Source: an uncultured Caldithrix sp.
GTDB taxonomy: Bacteria > Calditrichota > Calditrichia > RBG-13-44-9
DNA: 43,119 nucleotides
Reading direction: 5' to 3'
NCBI GenBank assembly: GCA_964394475.1
Contig: CAYMXZ010000002.1
Span: forward strand, 1-43,119
The notes under the pieces were generated by a model. It did not search any database and was not told the origin of the DNA. It saw only the letters and a program-made list of their open reading frames with translations. How positions within the stretch are numbered: position 1 is the first letter of the stretch; the number at the start of each line of letters is the position of its first letter. Shown piece by piece: positions 19,423-43,119 of the stretch. The translations under genes and the position numbers were made by a program.

Positions 19423-19483
19423 CGAAATTGCTCCTGAATTTTTAAAAGATAATACGAAAAGTTTGATCAAATTCAACGAAATT

Positions 19484-23454: not shown

Positions 23455-24909
23455 ATGAACGAAAAAGTGATTACTCGCTTTGCTCCCAGTCCCACCGGGC
23501 TACTTCATGTAGGTAGTGTACGCACTGCGTTGTTCAATTATCTTCACGCGAAAAAGCGGGAAGGCATTTTTCGATTGCGGATTGAAGATACTGATGTGAA
23601 GCGTTCGAGTCCAGAATTGACTCAAAAAATTCTGGACGGTTTGAAATGGTTGGGAATCGAGTGGGAAGAACCTGTTGTTTTTCAGAGTGCAAATTTGAAG
23701 CGTCATCAAGAGGTGGCGCATATGCTACTGGAAAGAGATTGTGCCTATCGCTGTTTTTGTACAAAGCAGGAATTGGAAAACCACCGTCAGGATTTCCGCT
23801 ACAATCAACATTGCCGTCACCTTACCCCAAAAGTGATTCAAGAAAACCTAGAAAAAGGTAAACCGTTTTCCATCCGTTTTAAAGTCCCTTCCGGAATAAC
23901 TTCCTGGGAAGATACCATTCATGGCACGATTTCCGTTCAGAATAATGAAATCGAAGATTTTGTTGTCCTGCGCTCTGATCGCTACCCTACTTACCAGCTG
24001 GCAGTCGTGGTGGATGATCATGATATGAGTATTAATTGGGTTATTCGCGGTGATGATCATATCTCCAACACTCCCAAACAGATCTTGCTCTATCAGGCCA
24101 TGGAATGGGATATTCCGACCTTTTCTCATGTACCACTTATCTTAGGATCGGATAAAAAGCGTTTGAGCAAACGGCATGGCGCAACCTCTGTTGAAGAATA
24201 TCAGCAGATGGGGATTTTACCAGCGGCTCTATTTAATTTTTTGGCGATCTTGGGTTGGGCTCCACCCGACAATCGTGAAATACTGTCCCGTCAGGAAATT
24301 ATTCAACTATTCGACCTGCATGATATCTCTCGAAAAAGTGCGGTTTTTGACGAAAAGAAATTAGCCTGGATTAATCAACAACATATTCTCCAGTCCGAGC
24401 CAGAGACTTTGTATCCCTTTATTCATAAATTATGGAACCAACAGAGATGGGTTAATGATCATCCTGATCAGAGTCATAAAAAATGGTTTCTCTCACTAAT
24501 TCAATTGTTAAAACCTCGCACCACTTATTTAAATGATTTTATCGAACTGGCTCGTTACTTTTTTGAAGAACCCAATACATTTGACGAGAAAGGATTACAA
24601 AAGTACTTTACGGATCCGGAGTCCTGGACACTGCTAAAAGAAGTGGCAAATGAACTGAAAGCCTGTCAACCATTTTCGGCAACTGTTATTGAAAACTCAA
24701 TAAGACAATTCAGTGAAGTAAAAAAGATTTCTGCTGCTAAAATAATTCATCCTCTGCGTCTGGTTTTGACTGGTCGCACGGCTACTCCCGGTTTGTTTGA
24801 GGTAATGGAATTACTTGGTAAAGCAACCGTGTTAAAACGAATAGAGGTATTCGTAGATAAAAAGTATCACATCCATGAATTCTTGAGAATTGATAAGAGA
24901 GGACAATGA
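23455..24909 (+). CDS. gltX: Glutamate--tRNA ligase
   Basis: N-terminus VITRFAPSPTGLLHVGSVRTALFNY (HIGH-type motif). RLRIEDTD. KRLSKRHG (KMSKS-type motif). I start the gene at the ATG at 23455 (MNEKVITRFAPSPTG). The ORF-track TTG at 23416 adds an unlikely N-terminal extension. Confidence 0.95.
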   Translation: MNEKVITRFAPSPTGLLHVGSVRTALFNYLHAKKREGIFRLRIEDTDVKRSSPELTQKILDGLKWLGIEWEEPVVFQSANLKRHQEVAHMLLERDCAYRCFCTKQELENHRQDFRYNQHCRHLTPKVIQENLEKGKPFSIRFKVPSGITSWEDTIHGTISVQNNEIEDFVVLRSDRYPTYQLAVVVDDHDMSINWVIRGDDHISNTPKQILLYQAMEWDIPTFSHVPLILGSDKKRLSKRHGATSVEEYQQMGILPAALFNFLAILGWAPPDNREILSRQEIIQLFDLHDISRKSAVFDEKKLAWINQQHILQSEPETLYPFIHKLWNQQRWVNDHPDQSHKKWFLSLIQLLKPRTTYLNDFIELARYFFEEPNTFDEKGLQKYFTDPESWTLLKEVANELKACQPFSATVIENSIRQFSEVKKISAAKIIHPLRLVLTGRTATPGLFEVMELLGKATVLKRIEVFVDKKYHIHEFLRIDKRGQ

Positions 24910-26393
24910 ATACCTTTAAGACAATCGTGGTCGATGACCAGCCGGAGATTATTGCGAACCTGGAAAAGCAACTAGGTAAATACGGTTTGCAGGTACATAC
25001 CGCTCAAAATTACACAGAAGGACGGTTCTTAATCGATCATTATTCGTTTGATATTGCCATTCTGGATATCGCTCTTCCTGACGGCAGTGGCATTGACCTC
25101 TTCCGCCAATTGCGTCAAAAAAATAGCGAGATCTATACCATCATCATAACCGGCAATGCAACTCTGGAAAATGCAGTTATTGCTTTGAATGAAGGAGTCA
25201 ATGCCTATTTAGTAAAACCATTTTCAGAAGAACAATTACATACCGCTTTGCAACAGGCCGAGAAAACAATAAGTCTGAAATCAGAAAATCAAGCCCTGTT
25301 TAACGAAATTCAACGCAATAGACAGTTTTATGAAAATCTACTTAATTCAACCAGTGAAGCGATTCTGGTACTTGATTTAAATTACCATATCCAGTATGCT
25401 AATCATTCTGCTCAGATGTTGTTCAATCTCACCCCGGATTCATCCGAAAACCACCCCCTGGAAGAATTTATCGTAGATGGTTATAAAATTCTTTCCCACA
25501 TTCATCAACAGTTGATGCAGGGCAAACCGGTTTCAGGTTATCGCATTTCGATTAAATCAAAATCGAATAAATTATTTGATGCTCATTTGAATGCCGATCT
25601 CTTGATGAGTAAGGCTGGCCATAGCGAAGGTTTAATTATCAATCTGACCAATCCATTAGTCGTCGATGAGGCTTTTAATCGCATGGTAAGAAAAGAAAAA
25701 TTATCTACCATTGTGCATCTGGCGAATTCACTAAGTCATGAGATACGAAATCCAATTAATATCATGTCTGGACGGCTGCAGTTGTTAGAAAATGAACTCA
25801 ACGATCCCCATTTTAAAAACGCATTTGAAAGTATTCAGCGGCAGATCGAGCGGATTTTACATATCACTGAATTATTAGAAAAATTTAATTTTAGTCGAGA
25901 GGATTCTATTCCAGAAAAATGCAACATCACAAAAATTTTTGAAACTGTTCTTCTGGAAAGAAAACCTCTTTTCAATGAGAAAAAAATCGAAATTGACTGC
26001 CAGATGCTTAAAAACGGTTTCACTGTCGAGGGTAATCAGATTCAATTTACTGATGCATTCCGATATTTATTTGACTCATTATACGATCTCACACCGGCTG
26101 GTAAAAAACTTGAAATTACCGGAAAAGTTACCGCGCACGCCCAGGATACCAAATGGTATGAATTTCATTTCATTATTCCCGAAAAAAAAGTTAGTGCCGA
26201 TAAATTATTTGAACCCTATCAATCAATCGATATGCAACTAAATGGACTCCTGGGTTTAGGTATGGTTATTATGCAGACCATTTTCAATAATTATGGTGCG
26301 AAAATCGAGACAATGATTCAAAATAATTCTCAAACGCTTATTCGAATTCGGTTTCCCTTGTTTGAAAATCTATCAACACAGATGATTCATTAA
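24906..26393 (+). CDS. Receiver-PAS-HisKA protein with a degenerate ATP-binding (CA) domain
   Basis: REC domain: VVDDQPEI...ILDIALPDGSG...IIITGNA...YLVKPF. A PAS-like middle region. H-box LANSLSHEIRNPINIMSG. In the CA region I find no N-box Asn (FRYLFDSLYDL instead) and no DxGxG. A G2-like GLLGLGMVI remains. The start overlaps the gltX stop (ATGA at 24906-24909). Confidence 0.8.
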   Translation: MNTFKTIVVDDQPEIIANLEKQLGKYGLQVHTAQNYTEGRFLIDHYSFDIAILDIALPDGSGIDLFRQLRQKNSEIYTIIITGNATLENAVIALNEGVNAYLVKPFSEEQLHTALQQAEKTISLKSENQALFNEIQRNRQFYENLLNSTSEAILVLDLNYHIQYANHSAQMLFNLTPDSSENHPLEEFIVDGYKILSHIHQQLMQGKPVSGYRISIKSKSNKLFDAHLNADLLMSKAGHSEGLIINLTNPLVVDEAFNRMVRKEKLSTIVHLANSLSHEIRNPINIMSGRLQLLENELNDPHFKNAFESIQRQIERILHITELLEKFNFSREDSIPEKCNITKIFETVLLERKPLFNEKKIEIDCQMLKNGFTVEGNQIQFTDAFRYLFDSLYDLTPAGKKLEITGKVTAHAQDTKWYEFHFIIPEKKVSADKLFEPYQSIDMQLNGLLGLGMVIMQTIFNNYGAKIETMIQNNSQTLIRIRFPLFENLSTQMIH

Positions 26394-26434
26394 ATTAATA
26401 AAACAGTAATACTTATTAAGTGAGGAGCACCGTC

Positions 26435-27793
26435 TTGAAAACGAGTATTTTAATTGTCGATGATGAAACGGATGCGTTGGACCTCATGGAAGAACTATTT
26501 TTAAAGCATGGCTACGAAACATTTACTGCCCGCAACGGGCTGGAAGCCATGCCAATAATTGCCGAGCATGAGCCTGACATACTTATTTCAGATATGGTCA
26601 TGCCCGAAATGGATGGAATTAAGCTCTTAGAATTGGTAACCAAAAAATATCCAGATATTGCCGTCATTATGATAACCGCTCACGGAACTATCGAAACGGC
26701 GGTAGAGACCATGAAAAAGGGAGCAAAGGATTATATTTTGAAACCTTTGCGGTTGGATGAAATTCTGGCAAAAGTAGAAACTATCTCACAGCTGAAATCG
26801 CTGATGAAAGAAAACCAGTATCTGCGTGAGAAGCTTTCGCAAAAATATAATTTTAATAATATTATTGGCAAAAATAGCCAGATGCTGGAACTCTTTGATC
26901 TGATTAAAGACATTGCGAAAACAAACTCTACGGTATTGATAACCGGAGAAAGCGGAACCGGCAAAGAATTAATCGCCAATGCCATCCATTTTAATAGTGA
27001 TCGAATAAAAAAGCCTTTTGTGAAAGTCAATTGTGGGGTACTGGCGGAAAATCTATTGGAAAGCGAATTATTCGGACATGTTAAAGGTTCATTCACCGGT
27101 GCCATAAGGGATAAACTTGGTCGCTTCGAACTGGCCAATGGGGGTACCATTTTCCTGGATGAAATAGGAGATGTAACTCCCAACATGCAGCTAAAATTAT
27201 TAAGAGTTCTGCAGGAAGGAGAGTTTGAGAGAGTGGGTGGAACTGAAACAATTAAGGTTGATGTACGGATTATTGCAGCCACCAATCGCAATTTGAATGA
27301 GATGATGATGAAAGGTCAATTCAGACAAGATCTATATTACCGTCTCAATGTCATTCCTTTAGAAGTTCCTCCTCTGCAGGAAAGGAAAGATGATATTCCC
27401 TTATTGATTTCGCACTTTTTAGAAAAATTCAATAAACAATTTAATAAGAAGATTGATTTCATTGAAGATGAGGTCATGAAATATTTGCAGAATTATTCCT
27501 GGCCTGGAAATATCAGAGAACTTGAGAATTTGTTAGAACGAGCAGTGGTTTTGAATAAAACGGGCAAACTTACCCTCAAGGATTTCCCACTTATCTTAAG
27601 CGCTCAGGAGAGCAATTTTGAGGTGGAATTAACAACGGAGGGCGCTTTGACTGAAATTGTCGATAATTACGAAAAGCAAATTATTTTAAAAGCACTGCGT
27701 GAAAACAATTTTAACAAACTCCGAACGGCCGAGAAACTGGGAATTCATCGCAGTACCTTTATGTCTAAACTAAAAAAATATAATATCAATTGA
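26435..27793 (+). CDS. Sigma-54-dependent Fis-family response regulator (NtrC-like enhancer-binding protein)
   Basis: REC (ILIVDDETDA...ISDMVMPEMDG...ILKPL). AAA+ domain (GESGTGKE, ESELFGH, GSFTGA, GGTIFLDEIG). C-terminal Fis-type HTH (RTAEKLGIHRSTFMSKLKKYNI). I prefer the TTG at 26435 because AGGAG lies 7 nt upstream. The ORF-track GTG at 26420 is the alternative. Confidence 0.9.
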   Translation: MKTSILIVDDETDALDLMEELFLKHGYETFTARNGLEAMPIIAEHEPDILISDMVMPEMDGIKLLELVTKKYPDIAVIMITAHGTIETAVETMKKGAKDYILKPLRLDEILAKVETISQLKSLMKENQYLREKLSQKYNFNNIIGKNSQMLELFDLIKDIAKTNSTVLITGESGTGKELIANAIHFNSDRIKKPFVKVNCGVLAENLLESELFGHVKGSFTGAIRDKLGRFELANGGTIFLDEIGDVTPNMQLKLLRVLQEGEFERVGGTETIKVDVRIIAATNRNLNEMMMKGQFRQDLYYRLNVIPLEVPPLQERKDDIPLLISHFLEKFNKQFNKKIDFIEDEVMKYLQNYSWPGNIRELENLLERAVVLNKTGKLTLKDFPLILSAQESNFEVELTTEGALTEIVDNYEKQIILKALRENNFNKLRTAEKLGIHRSTFMSKLKKYNIN

Positions 27794-30617: not shown

Positions 30618-33473
30618 TCATGCTTTCTGATTTAAAACTTGCCTGATCTTCAATGCTAATTCTCTCATGCGGTATGGTTTGGGCAGCAATCCATTTATCA
30701 GTAAATCATCGGGGATAGATTTTTCTTTTTCGGGGTGCCCACTGGAAAGTAAGACTTTTATTCGTTTATCGATTTCTCTAATTTTTCGAATAGTTTCAAC
30801 ACCATTCATTCGCGGCATCGACATATCGATGATAACCAGATGGATCTTATATTTTTTCTGTTCCAATAATCGAATAGCTTCGGGTCCACTGGAAGCTTGA
30901 AATACGGCATAGCCTAAAGATTGCAGAATATCCTTCACCGAATCCCTAATTAATTCTTCATCGTCTACGATTAGAATTGACTCGGAACCCTCAGGAATAT
31001 TTTGACTGGAATCTTCGGTTTCGAATGATAGTTTTCGGCGAGCCGGTGGCAGGTAAAGATAAAAAGTCGTACCTTCATTCACTTCGCTTTCCACTTCTAC
31101 AAAACCCCGATGGCTCTGCATAATTCCATAAACAACCGAAAGTCCTAAACCTGTACCTTTTCCAACAGATTTAGTTGTAAAAAAGGGATCGAAAATCTTA
31201 TCGAGATCAGATGGTTTAATTCCACATCCCGAATCAGTAACACTTATACAAACATAATCTCTGGCAACCGATTGAGGATCAGAGTGGGGTTTATATTTAC
31301 ACATCCGAGTCCGTATAGTGATCTCGCCGCCATTTGGCATGGAATCCCTGGAATTAAGGGCTAAATTGATCAATACCTGACTCAGACGATTCTCGTCACC
31401 TTCAATATCTTCAATTTTAGGATCCAGATCTAATAAGATATCATATTCTTTTCCCAGAGTTCGTTGGAGCATCCCTGATAATCGAGTGACCAGTTGATTG
31501 GGAGAAATAATTTGCAATTGAATGTCTTGATTTCTTGAAAACATCAAGAGTTGACGGGTCAACTCAGCAGCCCGTTGAGTCGCTTCAGCAATAACAGTTG
31601 CTCGTCGTAAAAGTGTAGGATGACCGTTTGCTTCGCTCTTTATTAAGTCGGTATTGGGAAGAATTATACCAAGAATATTATTAAAATCGTGAGCAATGCC
31701 ACCGACAAGTGTTCCCAAACTCTCCATTTTCTGCAATTGAATAACTTGTTGTTGAGACCGTTGCAGTTCACTATAGGCATTCTCTAGGCTCTGCGCTTTT
31801 TCTTCCAGAGCCTTAACCAGATTTTTATTGTCTAATAGAATAGCTGTTTCAGTGACCAGCGTACTGAGCAGATGAACTTCTTCTACCCGAAAGGGTTGTT
31901 TTTTATTCCGGAAAAACACCAATACACCAAGATGATAATCTTTTTCACTTATGGGAACACTTATAAGAGAATACGATTTTTTATCAGTTATACCAGCTAT
32001 TTTCATTTCTTCCCGGCTTATCTGCGCAGAGTCCAACATGATAGGTTCATTGTCGGAATATGTTTTCCATAAAAAGTGATTTCCTACAGTAACTTTTTCA
32101 GCAAGATTTGCAATATACTGTTTTGGGAAGGTATGGGAGGGATAAAATTCATTTTTGTTCTTATCATAAATATATATCAAACCAATTTCCGCTTCCAGCA
32201 ACTGACAACCATTGTCTAACATAGTTTTCAAAATCTCATTCGTATCCAGAGAACGCATCATTTGTTGGGTGGTTTCAATCAACTTCGCGAGGTTACTGGC
32301 ATTTTTTTGATTGAGCTCACTCAATCGTTCTAATTCTTCGGTTTTCTGAGTGAGTTCTTTATTGATGCGCTGTAGTTTACTCTGATTCTGTAAAATTTCA
32401 CGCTGTATTTGAATTTTTTCAGTTATATCAATGGCAGTGATGATAATATTTTTTATAATATCACCTTCATCCATATGACTGGCCACGCTCAATTCAACTA
32501 CCTTTTTTTGCCCATCGATCATTTCAAGGGTAGTAACATAATTCCGAACATCCTGACGATCTTCAATAATCTTATTAAAGATGGCATGGAGATCTTCCTT
32601 CTGAATAAAATTTTCCAGCTTCATTTGAGTAAAGAGGTCGCGTTGAATTCCAAAGAAACTGCAGGCACTTTCATTGGCGGTTTCGATCTGACCTAAAGTA
32701 TCAGCAATTATGATGGGAATTGGATTCAGCTGAAAAATCGTTTCCAAATATCTTTTCGATTGATTCAAAGCTAAAATGTGAGTATTCAGATTGTCCGAGA
32801 GATCATTTAACGCTTTAGACAGCTGTGATATTTCGTCGTTACCTTTTACCGGCAGATGCAAAGCTAAGGCACCGTTTTTATTTGAATATTCTCTAATGGC
32901 TGCTGCCGTTTCTTTAAGGGGAGTAGTAATAGCCTTCGCCATTAAACTCATCAGAATAAACTGTAAAACAGATAAACCAATAGTTAAAATTATTAAAAAC
33001 TTTCTTTGTTCATTTATCTTTTCCTTCATCCAATTCAGTTGAAATCCAACAATCAAATCAGCCTGATAGTTATCTTTATAGAATACACTTTGTCTTACTA
33101 AAAGGTAGCTATTCGCATATTCAGAGAGTGCATTAGATTTGCGGAATTTTTCAATAGTCTGAGAATCTGGAAATGAGCCATATTCATACTGCAGTTGATT
33201 TTGACTATTGATAATTACAGCAAGAGTAATATCCGGGTCAGTTTCTAATCCTTTTAAAATACTACTCAGCGAACCAGCATCATTTGTATAAAGTGCAGGT
33301 CCTATATTTATAGCGGCAGTTTGAACTAAGCTAATACCTTTTCTTAGAAATCCTTCCCGTAAGTTTTGTTCGATAGTAAAATTAAAGAAGAAAAAAAAGG
33401 TGCAAATAAACACCAACAGTATGAAAAATGAGAAAAGCCAGAGTTTTTTAGAGATGGATAGTTTTAATAACAA
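30618..33473 (-). CDS. Membrane-bound hybrid sensor histidine kinase (2 TM with periplasmic loop, HAMP, PAS, GAF, HisKA, HATPase_c, receiver)
   Basis: TM1 [20 protein letters not shown] and TM2 [21 protein letters not shown] flank a loop of ~130 aa. H-box [55 protein letters not shown]-terminal [15 protein letters not shown]...[11 protein letters not shown]...LPKPY. Confidence 0.9.
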
Positions 33474-33730
33474 TTTATTGCTCTTTATTTTTACATCTAT
33501 CTAATTGTACACCGATTTATCGAGTCAATTTGCTTTATAATTTCCGATGTAAATTTAACAGTCGATGGAATCTTCATCCTCTTTAATTTAAAGATACGAA
33601 CCATAAAATATTAAAAACTGATAACCCTACAATTTTTATTCCAACCTCCCAAAAAGTAATCATCAACATTATTCTCATCTATTTTTAAAAAATTATGAAT
33701 TACACAAATCATACGAAATTCAAAACATCT

Positions 33731-35269
33731 CTATTCATCAGTCAAGATTTCTTTCAAAGACTTTTTTATTTGAGTAATGGTATATGGTTTTTTTAAAAAT
33801 CCTACCACGCCAACCATATCCTCATTTGTAATCGGTTGATCATCAAATCCGCTGGTAAAGATTATCTTAAGATCAGGTTTCATTTTTCTAAGCGCTTGAG
33901 AAGTTTCTCGGCCATCCATATCTGGCATTTTCAGATCAATGATGGCAAATTGAAAATTATCAATATTCGAATGCACAAAATTTACTGCATCTCTACCACT
34001 AGTGAATTTAGCAACTTTATATCCCAGATATTCCAGAGTATCACCCAGGATATTTAGAACAGATTCCTCATCATCTATAATTAGAATCGTCATATTTTTT
34101 GATTGTTTAATCTCTAAATTTTCTTCCGTCTCTTCACTCTCCGATTTTATCTCTGCCGGCAGATACAGATCAAAACGAGTTCCTTTGTTCACTCGGCTGG
34201 AAACTTCAATGTGACCATTCATACTTTTAATAATACCGTAAACTACGGATAAGCCTAATCCGGTCCCTTTGCCAATATCTTTGGTGGTAAAGAAAGGATC
34301 AAAGATTTTGGAAATAATTTCCAGAGGTATACCTACACCATTGTCGACCACTGATAATCGCACATATTTTCCGGGATCCAACGACCCTACCTGATAATAC
34401 TTTTCGATGATGTAGTTTTCAGCTATGATTTCAATAATTCCCCCTCTTGGCAGGGCATCCACCGCATTCAGGACCAGGTTCATGATCACCTGTTGAAGTT
34501 GAGAGGCATCACCATTAATAAGGTGAAGATCTGGTTGTAATTTTTGTTCGATCTTTACATGGTCTGGAACTCCATGAACCAGTAATTCCACACTATCATT
34601 AATTACTTTATTTAGATTGAGTGTCTCATAATTGCGATGATCACCCTGGCGAGTAAAAGTGAGTAATCTTTGAGCAATCTCAGAAGCCCGGTGGGCTGAC
34701 TTTTCAATAATTTCTGCTCGTTTATAGTTTGTATCCTCCTTTTTGCTAGAAAGTTTAATTAATTCAGCATTGGGTATGATTGCTGCCAAAATATTATTGA
34801 AATCATGGGCAATTCCAGAAGCCATTAAACCGACACTTTCCAATTTTTGGGTTTGAAGTAGTTGGTTTTGTATTCTTTTTAATTCTGTAACATCTTTGAA
34901 AAGAAAAAGGTAACCAAAGATCTCCTGTCGATAATCACCCAGAACATTGGCGGTCAATATTACATCAAGAAGTTCATTTTGTTGCGTGCGAAGTTGAAGC
35001 TCCTGATTTCTGATTAGGCCGTATTTTTCAAGTTGTTCTCTTAAACTCATTGCTTGTTGTGGGTCATTGATAAAAGTGTTAAAAAAATTCGTCTGAGAAA
35101 TATCACTATTGGCGGGTATTTGGAGGAAAAAATAAGCTGCTTTATTGAGATAAATTAGATCACCAGTCTCACGAGTTATGCATACCCCATCTTGAAGGAT
35201 TTCGATCAACTCGCTTAGTTGAAATGATTTCTGAGAAGTTGACTTTTTGATCTTAAAAAAATTAAACAT
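33731..35269 (-). CDS. Soluble PAS-containing hybrid histidine kinase (PAS, HisKA, HATPase_c, receiver)
   Basis: No TM segment. H-box [70 protein letters not shown]...[11 protein letters not shown]...LKKPY. Confidence 0.9.
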
Positions 35270-35275
35270 AGCTTA

Positions 35276-36334
35276 TTATTTTTTATCTTTCATAAAAATC
35301 TTAATTTGATTTTGCCAGTCTCGCTTAATACTGCTGATACTGAAAAATAGTGCTAATAGAACGATCAGTGTTATGAAAAGACTATTCAGAAGCAGAAAAA
35401 AGGTCAATTTTTTTAGGACAAATAAAAATACTGATATGACAATAATTCCCAGGAATGAAATTAAGATCACATTGGTAGTCGATTTTGCGGCGATATTCGA
35501 GAGAAAACCCTTATGAGGTTTACTCACCAATCCACTCAAATACTGATAATTCATTAAATATCGTTCATTTTCAATAGAGGCTTCGCTATTCAGATAAACC
35601 CAACGTGCATACCATAGAATTAGCATAGAAGCATTTAGAACTAAACTGACCATTTGTCCTTTAAAGTAATTATTAAAATTCCATCTTTGAGCAATGATAT
35701 GAATGGGTTCAATAATATTTATCAGGGTAAATACAAATAGAATTGAATTAAGATATTCACTAATAACTATTCGCTTAAAATAATATCTGTACCAGAAGAC
35801 ACCCAAAAGAAGAATAGAAATAATCATCAATAAATTATTAATTTTGATCCATTCTTCCCATGTAATCTCATTTTGAAGTGCATTAATAGACAACAAGAAT
35901 TTTTGATTTAAAATGGTAACAAATAATGATGCTAAAAATAAAGCAAAAACTGTCCGAATCAATTCACGATTTCTCAATACTTGATATGAATAAAAAACTA
36001 GATAAAATACTATCCAAAGAATTATCAACCTTAGAAAAAAGATAATTAAAAAATATTCAAAAAATTCATTTTTATTTAAAACTGGAATAAAATTTAGAAT
36101 TGGAGAAAAAAATGCTACATATCCATAAAATACAAAAAAAATTATAGTTATCTCTTTATTTAATTTTGTAACATTTAATAAATTTTTAATAATTAAAAAA
36201 GTAATAAAATATAATATGTTATTCAAATAAGGAATCGGGCTTAAAAGATAGACTTTTTTGTACAATAAAATTAAAGAAAATAGAATAATAAATAGCAAAT
36301 AATATGAATTTAGTTTTAAAAATTTAATCAACAT
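35276..36334 (-). CDS. Polytopic integral membrane protein of unknown function (about 9-10 TM helices)
   Basis: 352-aa ORF made almost entirely of hydrophobic helices rich in I, L, F, N and K. It ends 6 nt before the start of the soluble kinase gene. No family recognised and no obvious SD. Confidence 0.6.
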   Translation of the reverse strand: MLIKFLKLNSYYLLFIILFSLILLYKKVYLLSPIPYLNNILYFITFLIIKNLLNVTKLNKEITIIFFVFYGYVAFFSPILNFIPVLNKNEFFEYFLIIFFLRLIILWIVFYLVFYSYQVLRNRELIRTVFALFLASLFVTILNQKFLLSINALQNEITWEEWIKINNLLMIISILLLGVFWYRYYFKRIVISEYLNSILFVFTLINIIEPIHIIAQRWNFNNYFKGQMVSLVLNASMLILWYARWVYLNSEASIENERYLMNYQYLSGLVSKPHKGFLSNIAAKSTTNVILISFLGIIVISVFLFVLKKLTFFLLLNSLFITLIVLLALFFSISSIKRDWQNQIKIFMKDKK

Positions 36335-36406
36335 AACTTATATCAGATATTATTAAATTATCATCGTCAATTTTTTTAAAATTTTAAAATATAAAATAAA
36401 TAAAAT

Positions 36407-36445
36407 AGGGGACACATTAAAATTAATTGTCCCCTATATTTTTTT
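36407..36445. terminator. Bidirectional Rho-independent terminator
   Basis: 8-bp stem AGGGGACA (36407-36414) / TGTCCCCT (36428-36435) with a 13-nt A/T loop. T-runs flank it on both strands (tattttttt on plus, attttatttatttt on minus). It lies downstream of the minus-strand gene pair 37269-36531. Confidence 0.65.
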
Positions 36446-36530
36446 CAGAACTAAAATAATTTTACAAGATAAAATCTCAGAGAGAGACTTTTAATAAAAC
36501 AACTTTATATTTTATAAATTTAAAACATTG

Positions 36531-36737
36531 TCAAATTAAATTTATTGTTGGAGTTCCTCCGCCTGGATTAGGTCTTGGTTGTGGCCTTGTAATTATACCA
36601 GAAATACTACTTTTAGATGGTGGTTGTATCTGGTTCCAAATTGAATATGAGCCACTGGGCTCATCAAAGATTAAACCAATAATCATAAAAAACAATAAAA
36701 TAAGACCCACGACAATGAATGGTGTGAAACGGCGCAT
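36531..36737 (-). CDS. Small membrane-anchored protein with a Pro/Gly-rich tail
   Basis: 68 aa. N-terminal TM FTPFIVVGLILLFFMIIGLIF. Tail ...QPPSKSS...RPQPRPNPGGGTP. AAAGGAGAG RBS ~7 nt upstream of the ATG. It is tightly linked to the upstream HTH gene. Confidence 0.55.
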   Translation of the reverse strand: MRRFTPFIVVGLILLFFMIIGLIFDEPSGSYSIWNQIQPPSKSSISGIITRPQPRPNPGGGTPTINLI

Positions 36738-36774
36738 TTCTCTCTCCTTTAATTATTTGGAGTTGGTTTTTTTA

Positions 36775-37269
36775 TTATGAATTATTTGTTCTGTTTACCT
36801 CTCTTTCTAAAAAATTTAAGCTACTCTTTACCTCTTGATATTTTTTCTGAATCTTCTCGTAACTTTCACTATCCCTTTTTTCAATCGCCCACTTCAATAA
36901 ATCCGTTATTTTAAAATATATTCCCTTCCTTCGATTCCGAATATATGGTATCTGCTCTTCCTGTATTTTTCGATAAATGCTGGTCCTTGACCTTAATCCA
37001 AAAATATCTCGTAAGTCATCCGGGTCTAATATTTCTTCATAATAGGGTAAACGACAAATTCTCCATCCTTTATGTTTAACTGCTCCTAATATATTCCCCC
37101 TATATATATGCCGTCGCAGCGGAAAACCCGGACTTGACTTTGTATCGCGTAAAATCCCTTCTCTCGCTAACCACCTCGCTGCACTTTTCAGAGGAATTGA
37201 ATCTAAATTTTCTTCTTGCAATCGCCTCTGAATATAGTTATTTATTCTGGCAATCATACTAAATGCCAC
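36775..37269 (-). CDS. Putative DNA-binding protein with excisionase/MerR-type helix-turn-helix segment(s)
   Basis: C-terminal half LRDIFGLRSRTSIYRKIQEEQIPYIRNRRKGIYFKITDLLKW resembles HTH_17/excisionase-type domains. The N-terminal half (LKSAARWLAREGILRD...PLRRHIYRGNILGAVKHKGWRI) looks like a second, diverged copy. GTG start, with an alternative ATG at 37257. Confidence 0.5.
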   Translation of the reverse strand: MAFSMIARINNYIQRRLQEENLDSIPLKSAARWLAREGILRDTKSSPGFPLRRHIYRGNILGAVKHKGWRICRLPYYEEILDPDDLRDIFGLRSRTSIYRKIQEEQIPYIRNRRKGIYFKITDLLKWAIEKRDSESYEKIQKKYQEVKSSLNFLEREVNRTNNS

Positions 37270-37366
37270 AAAGAATATATTTTTATGATTTTCAACGAAC
37301 TAAAGTTTTAGTAAAGATACTACTAAATGTAGCAAATTGCAATAAATACAAATTTGAGGAATAAAT

Positions 37367-38101
37367 ATGAATTTACAAAACCGTGTCTGTCTCGTCACCG
37401 GCAGTAATGTTAGAGTGGGTAAAACTATTGCCCTAACCCTATCTGAAAAAGGAGCAAAAGTTGTCATCCACTATCGTTCCCAGAAAATAACGGCCGAAGA
37501 AACAGCTGACCTCATACGCGCTAAGGGAAAAGACTGTCTTTTAGTACAAGGCGATATCAGTGTAAGAGCGGACTGGATAAGAATGCGTGACAAAATTATT
37601 GAAAAATGGAACAAAATTGATGTCCTGATTAACAATGCCGCCATTTTCTACCGCACCCCATTTTTTGAAGTCAGTGATAAAGAATGGTATGATTTTTTAG
37701 ATATTAATCTGAAGGGCACTTTCTATGGCTGCCAAATCATGGGGGAGCTCATGGTAAAACAACGCTCAGGAAAAATAATTAATATAACCGATGTCTCCGC
37801 AGAAACAGCCTGGCCAGCTTATTTACCCTATTGCATTTCTAAAGCAGGAGTCATTACCCTAACCAAAGGACTGGCAAAGGCATTGGCCCCTTACGTCACT
37901 GTTAATGCCATTGCCCCTGGAACTGTATTATTGGCAGAAAACTATGATGAGGCTGAAGAAAATTATTTGATTGAAAGAACACCCCTTAAACGAGTCGGAG
38001 ATCCCCAGGATATTGCCAATACAGCCGTATTTTTGATCGAAGGCAGCGATTTTATCACTGGAACAGTGATAAACGTCGATGGAGGTCGTTCGCTGAGCTA
38101 A
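37367..38101 (+). CDS. SDR family oxidoreductase (classical short-chain dehydrogenase; cofactor motif resembles pteridine-reductase-like members)
   Basis: VCLVTGSNVRVGKTIAL (TGxxxxxG). NNAAIF. Catalytic YCISK (YxxxK). PGTV. GAGG RBS upstream. Confidence 0.85.
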   Translation: MNLQNRVCLVTGSNVRVGKTIALTLSEKGAKVVIHYRSQKITAEETADLIRAKGKDCLLVQGDISVRADWIRMRDKIIEKWNKIDVLINNAAIFYRTPFFEVSDKEWYDFLDINLKGTFYGCQIMGELMVKQRSGKIINITDVSAETAWPAYLPYCISKAGVITLTKGLAKALAPYVTVNAIAPGTVLLAENYDEAEENYLIERTPLKRVGDPQDIANTAVFLIEGSDFITGTVINVDGGRSLS

Positions 38102-38200: not shown

Positions 38201-39685
38201 CTATACTCTCCGCAGAGGTAAAAGAATCTTAAATTCACAACAATCTTCACTGGTAAAGGTGATCTTTAAGCGCCCTCCTTTTTCCTTTAATTTTCGTTTA
38301 AGCAACTCCATATCCATCGAATAACTGGCTTCTAATTGACGTTCATCATCCATTTGAATACTGGGTGTAAACAATAACTGAGTCACCTGCATCCCTTCTA
38401 TGCTGGTTTCAGGCAATTCTTCATCAATTTCATAAGTGACCAATCGCTGAATCATGCGTTCAATCCGATCTATTCTTCCATCGTGTTTCATTACCAATCC
38501 TAAAAACCCATCATTAATCATTGAAGAAATTTTTATGATGGCACTGGGATCTTTATTGGATGACTTTCTTTGATCGAAATCTTCGATTCCATACAAAATG
38601 GCATTTCTTACCAGAAGAAAAAGAATATCCCTCACAATGTTCCGATAAGAATATGGAATCGATAAAGCATCAAAATCCTTGTAATCAAACTTAACCGTTT
38701 TCCCAAGTTGTTTGCTCAAACTGATAATAAGCTGTTTTAAAGAATGTACGAGCAATTCACTTTCATACGTTCGCTTGGTTCTAAAATGATTATGGAAGTG
38801 ACTGATGCGTTTAAAAATAGTCTGCACTTCTTTTAGAATTTCTCGCATATCACCTAAGGATACGACGATAGGTACAAAATCATTCCCGATGATATCGGGC
38901 TTATTACGCAATTTGACTACTTTGTTAATAAACTGATTAGTTCTGTCCGTGAAAAATCTCAGATCTAACATCGAGGCATTGCCTTTGATAATAAACAACG
39001 ACCGGTAAATATTTTCGATTAGTTCCCGTGGACTTTTCGTATCCTTGGCATTTTTTAATATCTCCTCGATATTCGCCAGTTCTTGTTCTACTCCCACAAA
39101 AAATTCTTTTAACATTTCTGGTTCAACATGCAAAATATTTACCAACCACTCCATCTGTTTCTGAGTGCGATCTTCCGTCTGCTGAATTTTTTTAGTCAAT
39201 ACAATTTTTTCAGTCACATCTTTGCTGGTAATTACTAATAATTTGATTTCATTATCTTCCACTACTCTTTTGAAGGAAAAAGTGAGATACTTTGATGAGG
39301 TCCAAATCCCCCATTCATCTTCATAAAAGAATTCGGTATCGACCAGCGGATTGAGTTCAGTGATCACTTCCTCATCCAAATCTGATCTAAACATTAATTG
39401 GATAAATTCTTTTGTATTCTCAATAATTTGGGTAGGAATTCGATTTTCCAGTAAATGAATTAAATTTTTACCCTCCAGATTATTTACTCCTAAAATATCA
39501 TGCAATACAACGGAATAGTATTTTTGAATAATAAAATTTCTATCCAAAAAGAAAATCCCTTCCATGGCATGTTGCAGAATCTGCTGCATCATCTGGTTCA
39601 GTTGATGCCATTCACTCTGGCGCTGGTTAGAATCAGCAACTGGTTCCGAGGAAGAGGGAATCAAATTTTGCTCATCTCCACTCAT
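38201..39685 (-). CDS. Soluble paralogue of the CheA-like kinase below: PAS-like, Hpt-like (His replaced by Phe) and a degenerate CheA-type ATPase domain; predicted pseudokinase
   Basis: Colinear with residues ~385-805 of the 40605-43119 product. Shared blocks include RTQKQMEWLVNILHVEPEMLKEF, IKGNASMLDLRFF and LLVRNAILYGIE. At the Hpt phospho-site the sequence is YRSLFIIKGNA versus YRSMHLIKGNA (TTT codon at 38993-38995). The G1 motif is HDGRID versus DDGRGI. The G2 motif GRGIGLD is replaced by ASYSMDM. Confidence 0.8.
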   Translation of the reverse strand: MSGDEQNLIPSSSEPVADSNQRQSEWHQLNQMMQQILQHAMEGIFFLDRNFIIQKYYSVVLHDILGVNNLEGKNLIHLLENRIPTQIIENTKEFIQLMFRSDLDEEVITELNPLVDTEFFYEDEWGIWTSSKYLTFSFKRVVEDNEIKLLVITSKDVTEKIVLTKKIQQTEDRTQKQMEWLVNILHVEPEMLKEFFVGVEQELANIEEILKNAKDTKSPRELIENIYRSLFIIKGNASMLDLRFFTDRTNQFINKVVKLRNKPDIIGNDFVPIVVSLGDMREILKEVQTIFKRISHFHNHFRTKRTYESELLVHSLKQLIISLSKQLGKTVKFDYKDFDALSIPYSYRNIVRDILFLLVRNAILYGIEDFDQRKSSNKDPSAIIKISSMINDGFLGLVMKHDGRIDRIERMIQRLVTYEIDEELPETSIEGMQVTQLLFTPSIQMDDERQLEASYSMDMELLKRKLKEKGGRLKITFTSEDCCEFKILLPLRRV

Positions 39686-39721
39686 AATTCTTTACAATGA
39701 TTCTCTTGAAAATTTTTATTG

Positions 39722-40168
39722 TTATTCTAAACATACCACTAAATAGCATCGATATTCCTTCCAGGTAATTGGGATAACAAAAGCTTGAACATGTTCGGGT
39801 AATCGAATATCTTTTGCCTTCCCTTCTACCACGACAGGCACCGAGATCATAAAACTACTTCCGTAAGCTTCACGAACATTCCCTGAAATGGTGTTCGCTA
39901 TCTCTCCGGTCAAATCTTTGACTGTTTCCACAGTGGCCTTAGGATCATCCAAGATGATATGAGCGAGGCTTCTTAACATTTCACTCGTAGTGGTAATATA
40001 TACACAACCTTTTCTTTTTCCAGAAATTCCAATTATACCAGAATAATCTAATACAACTGGTTCTTTTCCTTTTAAATAAGGAATACCGGTTATGGCCTGT
40101 TCTCCAGTAACTTCCTGGAAATAATTAACCGTACTATCTATAAAAAAATGAAGATCGGTTTCGTTCAT
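39722..40168 (-). CDS. cheX: CheX-like chemotaxis phosphatase (CheC/CheX/FliY superfamily)
   Basis: 148 aa, a CheX-typical size and layout: N-terminal FIDSTVNYFQEVTG, GIIGISGKRKGCVYI, and an ExxN motif in LTGEIANTISGNVRE followed by ...SVPVVVEG. It lies directly downstream of a CheY-like gene. Confidence 0.65.
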   Translation of the reverse strand: MNETDLHFFIDSTVNYFQEVTGEQAITGIPYLKGKEPVVLDYSGIIGISGKRKGCVYITTTSEMLRSLAHIILDDPKATVETVKDLTGEIANTISGNVREAYGSSFMISVPVVVEGKAKDIRLPEHVQAFVIPITWKEYRCYLVVCLE

Positions 40169-40185
40169 TCCTGGTTCTCCTATCT

Positions 40186-40560
40186 TTAATTTAGACCCAT
40201 CATTCTGCTGAAAGCACTTTTAAGCTTTTCAGAAGTAAATGGCTTCACGAGATAACTTTTTGCTCCAATTTGAATAGCCTTCAAGCCAGTGGCTTTGTCT
40301 TTCAAGGCGGTAATCACCATCACCTTTACATCTTTATTCATTCTCATCATCTCTTTAAGCACACTAATTCCATCCAGTTCGGGCATGGTGATATCCAGAG
40401 TCACCACATCGGGATTGGTGGTTTTGAATAATTCCAATGCTGTTTTGCCATCCCCTGCCATACCAACCACTTCCAGCGGAAAATCACTTAAATTTTTCTC
40501 GATGGCTTGACGAATAGTCATTGAATCATCAATAATTAAGATTTTGAATTTCTCTTTCAT
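40186..40560 (-). CDS. cheY: CheY-like single-domain response regulator
   Basis: 124 aa. ILIIDDSMTIRQ, VTLDITMPELDG (phospho-acceptor Asp), VITALKD, YLVKPF. No output domain. Confidence 0.85.
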   Translation of the reverse strand: MKEKFKILIIDDSMTIRQAIEKNLSDFPLEVVGMAGDGKTALELFKTTNPDVVTLDITMPELDGISVLKEMMRMNKDVKVMVITALKDKATGLKAIQIGAKSYLVKPFTSEKLKSAFSRMMGLN

Positions 40561-40604
40561 TCCTGCCTCACTAATTTTTGTGATCTTTTTATATATCGTT
40601 TATT

Positions 40605-43119
40605 TTATGCTTTTTCAGCTGTAACCCTGCGTTTATTCTTCAGATTGACTTTTAATTTTTTCTGCCTTTTTTTAATCGGAATAGTTATTTTAAATTCACA
40701 ATAGCTTCCCTTTTCAAAAGCAACCTGAATACTTCCTTTATGTTTTAAAATTTTGCGTTTGATCAGATCCAAGCCAATTCCGCGACCGGCAAAGATGTTA
40801 GCTTTTTCCGCCGTCGAAAAATCCGGCTCAAATATCAATTGGGCAATCTGATGGTCGCTCCATTTTTTAAGTATCTTCGGATCCACCTTACCACTTTGCA
40901 AAGCTATTTGACGCAATTTCTCAACCTGAATTCCCCTTCCATCATCCCGGAAGGTAAAACTATACATGTCATTCTTTAACTCAGTGGAAAGCGAAATGGT
41001 GGCCAGAGGTCGCTTTTTATGCTCTATCCTCTCCTGGGGACTTTCAATTCCATGATAGAGAGCGTTTCTTACTAATTGAATTAAAATTTCTTTGACAAGC
41101 AATCGGTATTGATAAGGTAAAGAGGTTGACTGAAAACTGGTATAATTGAATTCTACTTCTTTTCCCAGATCTCTCGCTAAATTATGAATCAAATTCTTAA
41201 TAGACCGAATCAATAAGTCGCTTTCATCATTTTTCTTTAATTGAAAATGTTTGTGAAAAGAAACCATTCGCTCAATAAGTTTTTTCACTTCGTAAAGATT
41301 CTGTTTCAGTTCACTTAACTTGATGACTAACGGAATAAAGTCATTCACCTGTATTTCGGGATTTTTTTTCATCCGACTGATATCTTCTTCAAATTGATGG
41401 GCCTGATCAGCAAAAAATTTTAAGTCTAATAAAGTGGCATTCCCTTTGATCAAATGCATCGAACGATATAATTCTTCCAGGACATGTTGAAGATTTCCAT
41501 TTTCTTCTGCGTGTTTTAGGAGTGAATCGACGTAGTTTAATTCACTTTCAACACCTGCTAAAAATTCATTTAATAAGGCAGGTTCAATATGGAGGATATT
41601 TACCAACCATTCCATCTGATTTTGGGTTCGCTCCTCTGATATCTTTAATTTTTTAGACAGCATGACCTGCTCAGTTACATCAACAACAGTAGTAATCAGA
41701 TTTAAAATCTTAGAACCTTCGTAAATACGCTTAAAATTAAAATTTAAAAATTTCGAACAAATCCATGATCCGCTTTCATCAGTAAAATTTACCTCAACTT
41801 CCTGCAAAGGATTTAACTCTCTTAAAGTTTCTTCGTCAACATCCACCGCAAACATTAATCGCAAAAAGTCCTGGGTATTGTGTATAATTTCTTTGGATAT
41901 TTTATTTTCTAATAGATTTAAAAAGTTCGAATTGGCTAAATTGGTTTCCTTCAACATCTTTTCTAAAGCTAAAGAATACTGTGATCCAATCACATAATCA
42001 GAATTCAAAAGAAACAAACCTTCTTCGACATGATTCAGAATATCATCCGTATCCTTTTTCGCACGTAGCAGTTCATAATTGCTCTGATTCAACTCCCTTG
42101 TCCTTTGCGAAACTTCCAATTCCAACCTGCGCTTTTGGAGGTTGATACTGCGAATTCGTAAATAGATAATGATATAGATTGAAGCTAGTAAGAACATGAC
42201 CATTATAAATTTAAACCACCAGGTCTGCCAAAACGGAGGTTCAATATATATATTGACAGACAGGCCTTTTTCATTCCATATGCCGTCATTATTGGTGCCT
42301 TTGACACGGAAAGTATACTGTCCTCCATTTAAATTGGTATAATTGGCAAATCGGCGAGTATCACAGTATATCCAATCCTGATCAAAACCTTCCAATTTAT
42401 AAGCATATTTGTTTTTACCGGGAGTTGAAAAATCCAGAGCAGCAAATTCAAAGGAAAGAAAGTTATCCCGATAGGTGAGTCTAATTTGATTAGTTTTGTA
42501 AACCGCCTGATGTAAAGGTATTTCCTGGTTATACTTTTTAATAGAAGTGAGAACGATTTCTGGTACATGAGTATTTTGTTTTACTTCCTGTGGAGAAAAC
42601 AGGGTAAAACCGTTAATTCCGCCAAAAAACATTTCACCCTGTCTATTTTTAAAAAAGGCATTGCCATTAAACTCATTTCCCTGAATTCCATCGCTCATTT
42701 CAAAAATTCTTACTTCTTTCGTATCCGGATTAAATTTCAGAAGTCCCTGATTGGTGCTCATCCACAAATTACCTTCTTGATCCTCTAAAATACCATAAAT
42801 AGCATCATGGGAGATACCAGCTTCTTTTGAATAATGGGTAAAAATAAATTCGTCGCGATCCAGCAACTCCAATCCTCCACCATAGGTACCAATCCAAAAC
42901 CTACCGGCGTGATCCTCATACATACAAAGCACGCGATTATTTGAAAGACTGTTGGGATTTGAAGGACTATTCTGAAAGGATATAAATCTATCTTCTTTTT
43001 TAATGTATAAACTTAAACCGCTAAATGTTGCTACCCAAATGGCTCCTCGCTTGTCTTCATATACATACCGAACATGATTGCCATACAAAGATTTTGCATC
43101 ATTTTGACGATGATAATAC
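40605..43119 (-). CDS. Transmembrane Reg_prop/Y_Y_Y sensor fused to PAS-like, Hpt and CheA-type HATPase domains, partial (N-terminus beyond the right edge of the window)
   Basis: Two-component-regulator propeller repeats (YEDKRGAIWVATFSGL, YEDHAGRFWIGTYGGGL, LEDQEGNLWMSTNQGL). Y_Y_Y domain (YAYKLEGFDQDWIY...GGQYTFRVKGTNNDGIWNE). One TM (WWFKFIMVMFLLASIYIIIYL). Hpt motif YRSMHLIKGNATLLDL, with the His codon at 41454-41456. CheA-type N, G1 and G2 boxes: LVRNALYHGIE, RDDGRGI, GRGIGLDLIK. The frame stays open upstream of the TTG at 43088 to position 43119, so the ORF-track start is not the real start. Confidence 0.85.
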   Translation of the reverse strand, partial: YYHRQNDAKSLYGNHVRYVYEDKRGAIWVATFSGLSLYIKKEDRFISFQNSPSNPNSLSNNRVLCMYEDHAGRFWIGTYGGGLELLDRDEFIFTHYSKEAGISHDAIYGILEDQEGNLWMSTNQGLLKFNPDTKEVRIFEMSDGIQGNEFNGNAFFKNRQGEMFFGGINGFTLFSPQEVKQNTHVPEIVLTSIKKYNQEIPLHQAVYKTNQIRLTYRDNFLSFEFAALDFSTPGKNKYAYKLEGFDQDWIYCDTRRFANYTNLNGGQYTFRVKGTNNDGIWNEKGLSVNIYIEPPFWQTWWFKFIMVMFLLASIYIIIYLRIRSINLQKRRLELEVSQRTRELNQSNYELLRAKKDTDDILNHVEEGLFLLNSDYVIGSQYSLALEKMLKETNLANSNFLNLLENKISKEIIHNTQDFLRLMFAVDVDEETLRELNPLQEVEVNFTDESGSWICSKFLNFNFKRIYEGSKILNLITTVVDVTEQVMLSKKLKISEERTQNQMEWLVNILHIEPALLNEFLAGVESELNYVDSLLKHAEENGNLQHVLEELYRSMHLIKGNATLLDLKFFADQAHQFEEDISRMKKNPEIQVNDFIPLVIKLSELKQNLYEVKKLIERMVSFHKHFQLKKNDESDLLIRSIKNLIHNLARDLGKEVEFNYTSFQSTSLPYQYRLLVKEILIQLVRNALYHGIESPQERIEHKKRPLATISLSTELKNDMYSFTFRDDGRGIQVEKLRQIALQSGKVDPKILKKWSDHQIAQLIFEPDFSTAEKANIFAGRGIGLDLIKRKILKHKGSIQVAFEKGSYCEFKITIPIKKRQKKLKVNLKNKRRVTAEKA

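Follow-up and report, generated by a model that had tools for sequence, protein, structure and literature searches.

An operon of probable class III histidine kinase type with a conserved kinase-like fourth gene in an uncultured Calditrichota bacterium

Introduction

What kind of signalling system fuses a periplasmic sensor directly to a histidine phosphotransfer (Hpt) domain and a CheA-type ATPase, and encodes next to it a CheY-like regulator, a CheX protein and a degenerate kinase copy, with neither CheW nor a methyl-accepting chemotaxis protein (MCP) in sight? This question is raised by an operon at the end of a 43,119-nucleotide stretch of DNA from an uncultured Caldithrix sp. (contig CAYMXZ010000002.1 of assembly GCA_964394475.1); the whole of this stretch is called the window in the following. 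A preliminary description of the locus, made from the letters of the sequence, had read the system as a receptor-kinase fusion that bypasses the MCP-CheW array, and had regarded its architecture as undescribed. We found that the operon very probably encodes a class III histidine kinase (HKIII) two-component system of an uncultured Calditrichota bacterium. Current understanding is not overturned by this, since the core of the architecture has been published before.

Domain composition of the sensor kinase

The operon consists of four minus-strand genes of the same direction, which in the open reading frame (ORF) list of the window are separated by intergenic gaps of 44, 17 and 36 nt (Table 1). 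A scan of the operon for promoters and terminators gave no signal exceeding the shuffled expectation. The same gene order was seen again in about 20 independent Calditrichota loci, and the operon is therefore a genuine, conserved signalling module, far beyond chance.

The cytoplasmic part of the first product joins an Hpt domain to a catalytic domain of the CheA P4 type. In the latter the N, G1, F and G2 boxes are intact (RNALYHGIE, DDGRGI, FEPDFST and GRGIGLD, respectively), Pfam HATPase_c scores 52 bits, and the NCBIfam CheA models align to the sensor ATPase over P4 (profile positions 354–537). When the 515-aa cytoplasmic part was compared with the PDB by phmmer, CheA P4 structures were matched at an E-value of 5e-27, together with one marginal match, BRIC1, at 0.006; in crystal chains that comprise P3, P4 and P5 the match starts after P3 and ends before P5. 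Both Pfam Hpt and HATPase_c were found in 71/71 aligned homologues. Throughout these 71 proteins the histidine of the H-x-IKG motif (His233 in the numbering of the cytoplasmic part) is invariant, as are the lysine and glycine of this motif, the N-box asparagine (N363; the preceding arginine is nearly so), the Asp and Gly residues of G1 and the GRGxG of G2. Among the 120 best protein matches, too, the histidine, G1 and G2 are preserved with few exceptions. Since the acceptor histidine and the ATP-binding boxes are conserved, the sensor protein looks like an active kinase.

Structure prediction led to the same composition. An AlphaFold2 (AF2) model of the cytoplasmic part, built on the 71 homologues, reached a predicted local distance difference test (pLDDT) score of 91 and displays in order a 40-residue helix, a PAS-like sheet, a connecting helix, the four Hpt helices, one further helix and P4; the Hpt histidine sits on the second of the Hpt helices. 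Foldseek placed the modelled last domain on CheA P4 with template modelling (TM) scores of 0.83–0.91 and a root-mean-square deviation of ~2 Å. Compared with T. maritima CheA, the P4 domain of the kinase shows 32% identity and a TM-score of ~0.9. When the family profile was compared with structures, CheA P1 was matched at E-values of 3e-6 to 4e-5 and CheA P4 at 3e-39.

Domains that would be expected in a conventional histidine kinase or in CheA are missing. HisKA, H-kinase_dim and CheW gave no Pfam match at E ≤ 1 and are not among the Pfam families listed for the 71 homologues. The P1-like and P4-like matches lie only ~20–35 residues apart, corresponding to one helix; the sensor ends ~20 residues past P4, the PDB matches stop at the P4 end, and the CheW-like P5 is absent. 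As the profile aligns into P3 of 4xiv and 1b3q, a hidden P3 was considered and rejected: the extension adds no score (137.2 versus 138.1 bits) and the residues are too few. Judged from sequence and model, the kinase would retain at most a one-helix remnant of P3 and no P3 hairpin. The preliminary description had claimed four tightly spaced genes and a first product with Hpt and CheA-class catalytic domains that lacks HisKA, P3 and P5; gene order and spacing proved correct, the motifs are present, and Pfam, the PDB matches, the AF2 model and the residue spacing agree on the absences. We also considered the marginal match BRIC1 (6ff6) as a possible characterized relative and rejected it, since its sequence looks like repeated copies of the P1 domain of an E. 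coli-like CheA. We take it to be an engineered construct that shows nothing beyond similarity to P1.

Sensor input and partner proteins

In the window the sensor is a fragment with three Pfam matches to Reg_prop and one to Y_Y_Y (70 bits), followed by a single membrane-spanning helix. The remainder of its N-terminus could be read from a syntenic contig, L003, which has ~90% DNA identity and reaches beyond the window end. On this contig the called sensor measures 1305 aa, or ~1360 aa including an upstream signal peptide, and the full-length protein carries 10 Reg_prop matches, Y_Y_Y and one transmembrane helix by Pfam and hydropathy. The signal peptide is a typical one directly upstream of the called start, so the propellers are periplasmic. 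The same arrangement as in L003 is present on the complete 4.06-Mb chromosome CP070707.1, a metagenome-assembled genome (MAG). A 487-aa ORF upstream of the kinase in another locus, L002, was examined as a possible paralogue and turned out to be the split N-terminal propeller of the sensor.

The PAS-like domain on the cytoplasmic side gave no PAS match in the Pfam scan of the sensor and is visible only in the AF2 model; in the alignments it is kept in every member of the kinase clade and also in the paralogue encoded by the fourth gene. The composition proposed earlier for the input side, with Reg_prop, Y_Y_Y, one transmembrane helix and a PAS-like domain, therefore stands, its last element by the model and not by Pfam.

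The second and third products were likewise recognized as what they had been called before, a single-domain CheY and a CheX-type phosphatase. The CheY-like protein consists of a receiver domain only and keeps D11, D12, D56, T84, Y103 and K106. The CheX protein carries the E89-x2-N92 motif with P111 further on; by its family and its intact motif it is predicted to be a CheY-P phosphatase.

Table 1. Coordinates of the operon genes and of the domains of the sensor kinase in the window
Feature	Position	Strand	Basis and remarks
Sensor kinase, probably of HKIII type	40605..>43119	(-)	ORF open to the window end, N-terminus cut; 837 codons here
Periplasmic input: last Reg_prop repeats and Y_Y_Y Ig-like domain (42243..42434)	42243..43118	(-)	Pfam
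Single transmembrane helix TWWFKFIMVMFLLASIYIIIYLR	42156..42224	(-)	Hydropathy scan
~40-residue helix leaving the membrane, before the PAS-like domain	42027..42152	(-)	AF2 model
PAS-like alpha/beta domain, followed by a long connecting helix	41679..42026	(-)	AF2 model (strands 45-158) and alignments
Hpt (CheA-P1-like) four-helix bundle	41244..41582	(-)	Pfam; profile match to CheA P1 structures
Putative phospho-acceptor His, residue 555 of the window translation, within YRSMHLIKGNA	codon 41454..41456	(-)	
CheA-P4-type ATP-binding catalytic domain	40671..41234	(-)	NCBIfam, PDB phmmer, Foldseek, profile
Single-domain CheY-like response regulator, 124 aa	40186..40560	(-)	Pfam Response_reg, 98 bits
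CheX-family protein, predicted CheY-P phosphatase, 148 aa	39722..40168	(-)	Pfam CheX, 71.4 bits (cut-off 27)
Putative pseudokinase paralogue (PSK), 494 aa	38201..39685	(-)	PAS-like/Hpt-like/P4-like layout as in the kinase

Assignment to the class III histidine kinases

The little-studied HKIII class was named by Adebali et al. (J Bacteriol 2017, 199:e00218-17). Its members reportedly combine a sensor domain, an Hpt domain and a CheA-like kinase without a dimerization domain, and are said to be partnered with a single-domain response regulator and CheX. Many of the systems reportedly have an unorthodox soluble chemoreceptor nearby. They are also said to occur in genomes without chemotaxis genes and to co-occur constantly with pilT, from which a role in type IV pilus motility was reportedly proposed. 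We know of no experimental test of an HKIII system. A second-hand summary agrees with two of these points, namely that the systems are found in the absence of che genes and that they are linked to a marker gene of type IV pili.

The operon of the window shares these domain and operon features. An input domain sits on the kinase chain (Reg_prop, Y_Y_Y and signal peptide); an Hpt domain with a conserved histidine takes the place of HisKA or another dimerization and histidine phosphotransfer (DHp) domain in 71/71 homologues; the catalytic domain is of the CheA (class II) type according to NCBIfam, PDB phmmer and Foldseek; a dimerization domain, be it HisKA or P3, is lacking by sequence and model, as is P5; and a single-domain response regulator and CheX are encoded next to the kinase both here and in the wider loci. 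Chemotaxis genes were not found nearby: in agreement with the preliminary description, Pfam detected no CheW, MCP, CheR, CheB, pilus or flagellar domain in window ORFs of at least 110 aa, and neither CheW nor MCP occurs in the Pfam-annotated neighbourhoods, which include Calditrichota, Leptospiraceae-like, PilJ-type, short and gammaproteobacterial loci. The idea of an undescribed architecture was thus not borne out, as the operon matches HKIII as outlined above, and we consider its membership of this class highly likely.

Several points weigh against this assignment. The comparison was made with the general description of the class rather than with its published member list, and the match refers to domain and operon features. 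The soluble chemoreceptor of many HKIII systems is absent, since no MCPsignal match was obtained in the window ORFs, in 38 related loci (with a Tsr signalling-domain seed) or in the Pfam-annotated loci; we regard this receptor as optional for the class. The E. coli CheW and Tsr signalling-domain seeds matched nothing over about 10 kb around the kinase in the 38 loci, but they could miss a divergent CheW. The Hpt score of the window sensor itself is 21–22 bits, under the Pfam cut-off of 24.6, so the assignment in this protein comes from the family-wide evidence. The AF2 model has a predicted TM-score (pTM) of 0.55, at which the relative placement of the domains is unreliable. Finally, it is a prediction that the kinase autophosphorylates, be it in cis or in trans, that it passes the phosphoryl group on and that CheX is active.

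The operon also has traits of its own. In comparison with HKIII it has a periplasmic double-propeller/Y_Y_Y input without the soluble chemoreceptor, and in Calditrichota a pseudokinase paralogue follows CheX, a gene that is not known to form part of the published class description. We believe that three additions to HKIII are unreported, namely the expansion in Calditrichota, the input through Y_Y_Y and the pseudokinase as a fixed partner. Only the conserved dead-kinase partner looks new, the core architecture being already known.

Distribution of the module

The four window proteins served as queries against the ORFs called in 38 loci. The genome scan, carried out with a narrower alignment on species-representative genomes, found only Calditrichota-type loci: all but two of 33, which bear only the title 'bacterium', are labelled Calditrichota, Calditrichia, Calditrichaceae or Caldithrix, and the best of them, from Caldithrix sp. 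RBG_13_44_9, is 75% identical. The wider spread described below comes from the protein search. The dominant order among the 38 loci is Y_Y_Y-kinase, receiver (REC), CheX, paralogue. A subset (L016, L022, L023, L029 and L001) shows the order REC, Y_Y_Y-kinase, second kinase, REC, CheX, paralogue. Here the second HKIII, located between the Y_Y_Y kinase and the REC-CheX-pseudokinase set, has a different N-terminus, and two sensors may feed one set of regulators. Several Calditrichota MAGs contain two separate HKIII loci each. In L021, L028 and L031 a REC-fused HKIII of ~611 aa is followed by a single-domain REC, without CheX or pseudokinase after it; here the same kinase clade occurs in Calditrichota in an operon of a second type.

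The N-terminal inputs attached to the same cytoplasmic core differ widely among the 71 homologues, with REC in 18, PAS in 14, GAF in seven, Y_Y_Y in six, PilJ in five, ROK in four and MASE6 in two. The trio of kinase, REC and CheX is found also in a Leptospiraceae-like genome, so named for a kinase that closely resembles proteins labelled Leptospiraceae and Turneriella, and with a PilJ-type and a short soluble member. A profile of the most divergent matches reaches proteins labelled Xanthomonadaceae, Steroidobacteraceae, Povalibacter and Burkholderiaceae, and the order kinase, REC, CheX appears again in Xanthomonadaceae and Povalibacter contigs. The set of kinase, REC, CheX and pseudokinase hence recurs across Calditrichota, and the trio beyond it. 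HKIII would accordingly be a much larger and more modular class than a handful of genomes would suggest, and one that is heavily expanded in Calditrichota.

Some of these loci show further peculiarities. In the Leptospiraceae-like locus (L039:8001-14624) the HKIII gene overlaps a gene for a class III nucleotidyl cyclase (Guanylate_cyc) by 4 nt, and behind the REC gene stand two CheX genes in tandem. The gene after CheX in the Xanthomonadaceae and Povalibacter contigs (L042:11167-12933 and L043:11268-13175) encodes a TonB_C protein of 588-635 aa; the fixed fourth gene appears to differ between lineages. On the ENA contig L001 (4394-8519 and 18671-21093) the Y_Y_Y kinase, a PPDK gene and the pseudokinase (cut at 432 aa) are found in adjacent fragments, and these split genes look like assembly indel errors rather than biology.

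The fourth gene, a putative pseudokinase

The fourth product is paralogous to the core of the kinase, as the preliminary description had recognized, and shares ~30% identity with kinases. Its catalytic motifs are degenerate. In the window protein Phe231 (codon 38993..38995) stands in place of the acceptor histidine, G1 is altered to HDGR-x2-RIER with the first Asp and the third Gly gone, and G2 is wholly lost; Pfam gives only a faint Hpt match, and an exact-sequence look-up matched no record. In an alignment of 42 pseudokinases the histidine column contains H 15, F 11 and Y 11 times and the N-box asparagine column N 24 and F 16 times. In the same alignment HDGR-x2-RIER is invariant and a C-terminal KITFTSE nearly so, the mean column identity is 57%, and 42 columns are invariant. 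About 64 clusters of full-length orthologues (470-508 aa) were found at 35-97% identity; all clusters with an informative source name are from Calditrichota, and none has a routine Pfam match except for one to Hpt. The AF2 model keeps the PAS-like/Hpt-like/P4-like layout with a disordered ATP-lid region, and Foldseek compares it to CheA P4 with a TM-score of ~0.7. The gene follows CheX in 20/22 loci that contain CheX and enough downstream sequence, and in L001 an orthologue is found after a soluble kinase-REC-CheX set.

Because full-length orthologues are conserved, carry motifs of their own, keep a fixed position and retain the fold, the fourth gene reads as a selected pseudokinase and pseudo-Hpt protein rather than a decaying copy. 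Judged from its residues, it cannot be a conserved phospho-acceptor or ATPase. One lineage would thus have recruited a dead kinase copy as a fixed fourth component. The nearest precedent is CheA3 of Rhodobacter sphaeroides: the CheA3/CheA4 split kinase is described as a dead CheA paralogue with degenerate HATPase_c that works beside an active one. Both cases present a non-catalytic paralogue next to an active kinase; however, CheA3 keeps a phosphorylatable P1 histidine and P5 and sits in a receptor array, whereas the pseudokinase has neither a conserved histidine nor P5.

With regard to function, we can only speculate. The pseudokinase most likely modulates or scaffolds the kinase, and the simplest guess at how it might do so is that the two proteins pair by way of the PAS-like/helical module that they share. 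A tentative and rather doubtful extension of this idea is that it might be an obligate regulatory subunit of Calditrichota HKIII that pairs with the kinase, replaces the functions of CheA P3, P5 and CheW, and either gates autophosphorylation or presents CheY~P to a target. If this were true, it would be a pseudo-enzyme route to signal coupling in a CheA-derived kinase that has no described counterpart, and it would help to approach the question of how a CheA-type core is kept under control when receptor arrays are missing, and of how histidine kinases can work without a dimerization domain.

Proposed signalling route

The domain order suggests how the system could work. The signal peptide exports two Reg_prop propellers and Y_Y_Y to the periplasm, where a ligand on this module could shift the geometry of the stalk formed by the transmembrane helix, the 40-residue helix and the PAS-like domain. 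Stalk geometry would in turn control the access of the tethered P4 to the histidine of the adjacent Hpt bundle. As the Hpt bundle is monomeric, a single kinase chain could phosphorylate itself in cis. The phosphoryl group would then be passed to Asp56 of the single-domain CheY-like regulator, and CheX would remove it and so set the signal lifetime, as in chemotaxis pathways. As it has no output domain, the CheY-like protein would have to act by binding a target; candidates are type IV pili, following the hypothesis reportedly published for HKIII, and the flagellar switch. Caldithrix abyssi encodes both machineries, with flagellar genes and a type IV pilus cluster. The earlier proposal, in which the CheA-type core perceives the signal itself and does without the MCP-CheW array, is in keeping with this route, and we infer that it holds.

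The preliminary description had also asked how an Hpt-ATPase protein without P3 would dimerize. The absence of P3 was found as stated, but the puzzle is less acute than it seemed, since a monomeric Hpt bundle needs no partner chain. Any dimerization could come from the periplasmic module, the transmembrane helix, the 40-residue helix or the PAS-like domain. It is perhaps dispensable altogether, because monomeric sensor kinases such as EL346 exist. EL346, which works as a monomer, resembles the kinase in having a PAS-type sensor, a helical bundle and a catalytic and ATP-binding (CA) domain on one chain, and its structure (PDB 4r3a) is a weak Foldseek match to the pseudokinase model. It differs in its HisKA2/HWE-type, DHp-like bundle, which is not a P1-like Hpt, and its ATPase is not of the CheA type.

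Alternative explanations

Could the kinase simply be the CheA of an ordinary chemotaxis pathway, coupled to MCPs and CheW whose genes lie in other parts of the genome? A P1-like Hpt with H-x-IKG, a P4-like ATPase and the classic che components CheY and CheX are what such a protein would offer, flagellar genes are known from Caldithrix abyssi, and our che survey covered the window and the related loci. However, the kinase lacks P2 and P3 as well as the P5 with which it would dock on receptor arrays, it carries a periplasmic, transmembrane sensor of its own, CheR and CheB were not found in the window, and no CheW or MCP turned up within about 10 kb in the 38 loci or in the Pfam-annotated ones. 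According to Berry et al., Hpt, dimerization, kinase and CheW-like domains are the core of all CheA homologues; with P3 and P5 missing, the kinase is therefore not a CheA, and this explanation, already largely refuted by these absences, has very little chance of being right. The input module points in another direction, towards a Bacteroides-style hybrid two-component system (HTCS) whose HisKA kinase has diverged beyond recognition. HTCS proteins, of which BT4663 is an example, have the same periplasmic Reg_prop propellers and Y_Y_Y and a single transmembrane helix, and the family profile weakly matches (E 0.04) chain 4a2l, a 'two-component system sensor histidine kinase/response' protein that we take to be BT4663. 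In HTCS, however, the chain continues with HisKA, HATPase_c, REC and an AraC-type helix-turn-helix (HTH), whereas the kinase of the window continues with a P1-like acceptor region and an ATPase that is specifically of the CheA type, and its receiver is a separate protein. As HisKA, a fused REC and an AraC-type HTH are all absent, the domain tests already refute an HTCS; the input module alone is shared, and we regard this explanation as extremely improbable.

For the HKIII reading, the role of its parts can also be questioned. Hpt domains commonly serve His-Asp-His-Asp relays, and two HisKA-HATPase-REC hybrid kinases are encoded 3-8 kb downstream of the operon, an arrangement that is syntenic in L003 and L005; the Hpt domain might thus mainly pass phosphate from the receivers of these hybrid kinases to the CheY-like protein, with P4 being secondary. 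This is unlikely in view of a P4 that has all its ATP-binding boxes and occurs on one chain with Hpt in 71/71 homologues, of more distant HKIII loci without adjacent hybrid kinases, and of a divergent short-chain dehydrogenase/reductase (SDR) gene and three other genes that separate the hybrid kinases from the operon. As for the fourth gene, the loss of the histidine (Phe231), of the first Asp and third Gly of G1 and of all of G2, together with the lack of a significant Pfam match, might be taken for a functionless kinase duplicate in decay. Such decay is contradicted by about 64 clusters of intact full-length orthologues, by the level of column conservation within the family, by the new family-specific motifs HDGR-x2-RIER and KITFTSE and by the fixed place after CheX and the retained fold, and we consider it very unlikely.

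Genomic surroundings

Beyond the window end, the stretch of L003 upstream of the sensor encodes ParB_N, aldehyde dehydrogenase (Aldedh), OMPdecase and phosphoribosyltransferase (PRTase) domains, and Pfam found no che genes in it. Downstream of the operon lie the genes of two hybrid kinases, one with the domains HAMP-PAS-GAF-HisKA-HATPase_c-REC at 30618..33473 (-) and one with PAS-HisKA-HATPase_c-REC at 33731..35269 (-). The close relatives L003 and L005 have both genes in synteny, but these were not seen in the Pfam-annotated neighbourhoods of more distant loci. A further signalling gene pair is found at 24906..26393 (+), which encodes a REC-PAS-HisKA protein of 495 aa with no HATPase_c match at E ≤ 0.001, and directly after it at 26420..27793 (+), which encodes a sigma-54 activator of the NtrC type. 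The 495-aa protein may be a kinase whose ATPase domain has degenerated or been lost.

Further features of the window lie outside the operon. An M1-family peptidase encoded at 17401..19515 (-) bears a C-terminal Por_Secre_tail domain (type IX secretion sorting), which fits an origin in the FCB group/Calditrichota; taken with the labels of the loci from the genome scan, it assigns the window to Calditrichota. The G+C content drops to 0.32-0.34 at 32001..38000, as against 0.37-0.42 in the first 32 kb of the window. Inside this low-G+C stretch lie the genes of a polytopic membrane protein of 352 aa without a Pfam match, which is also present in L003 (35276..36334), and of an HTH_17 protein (36775..37269).

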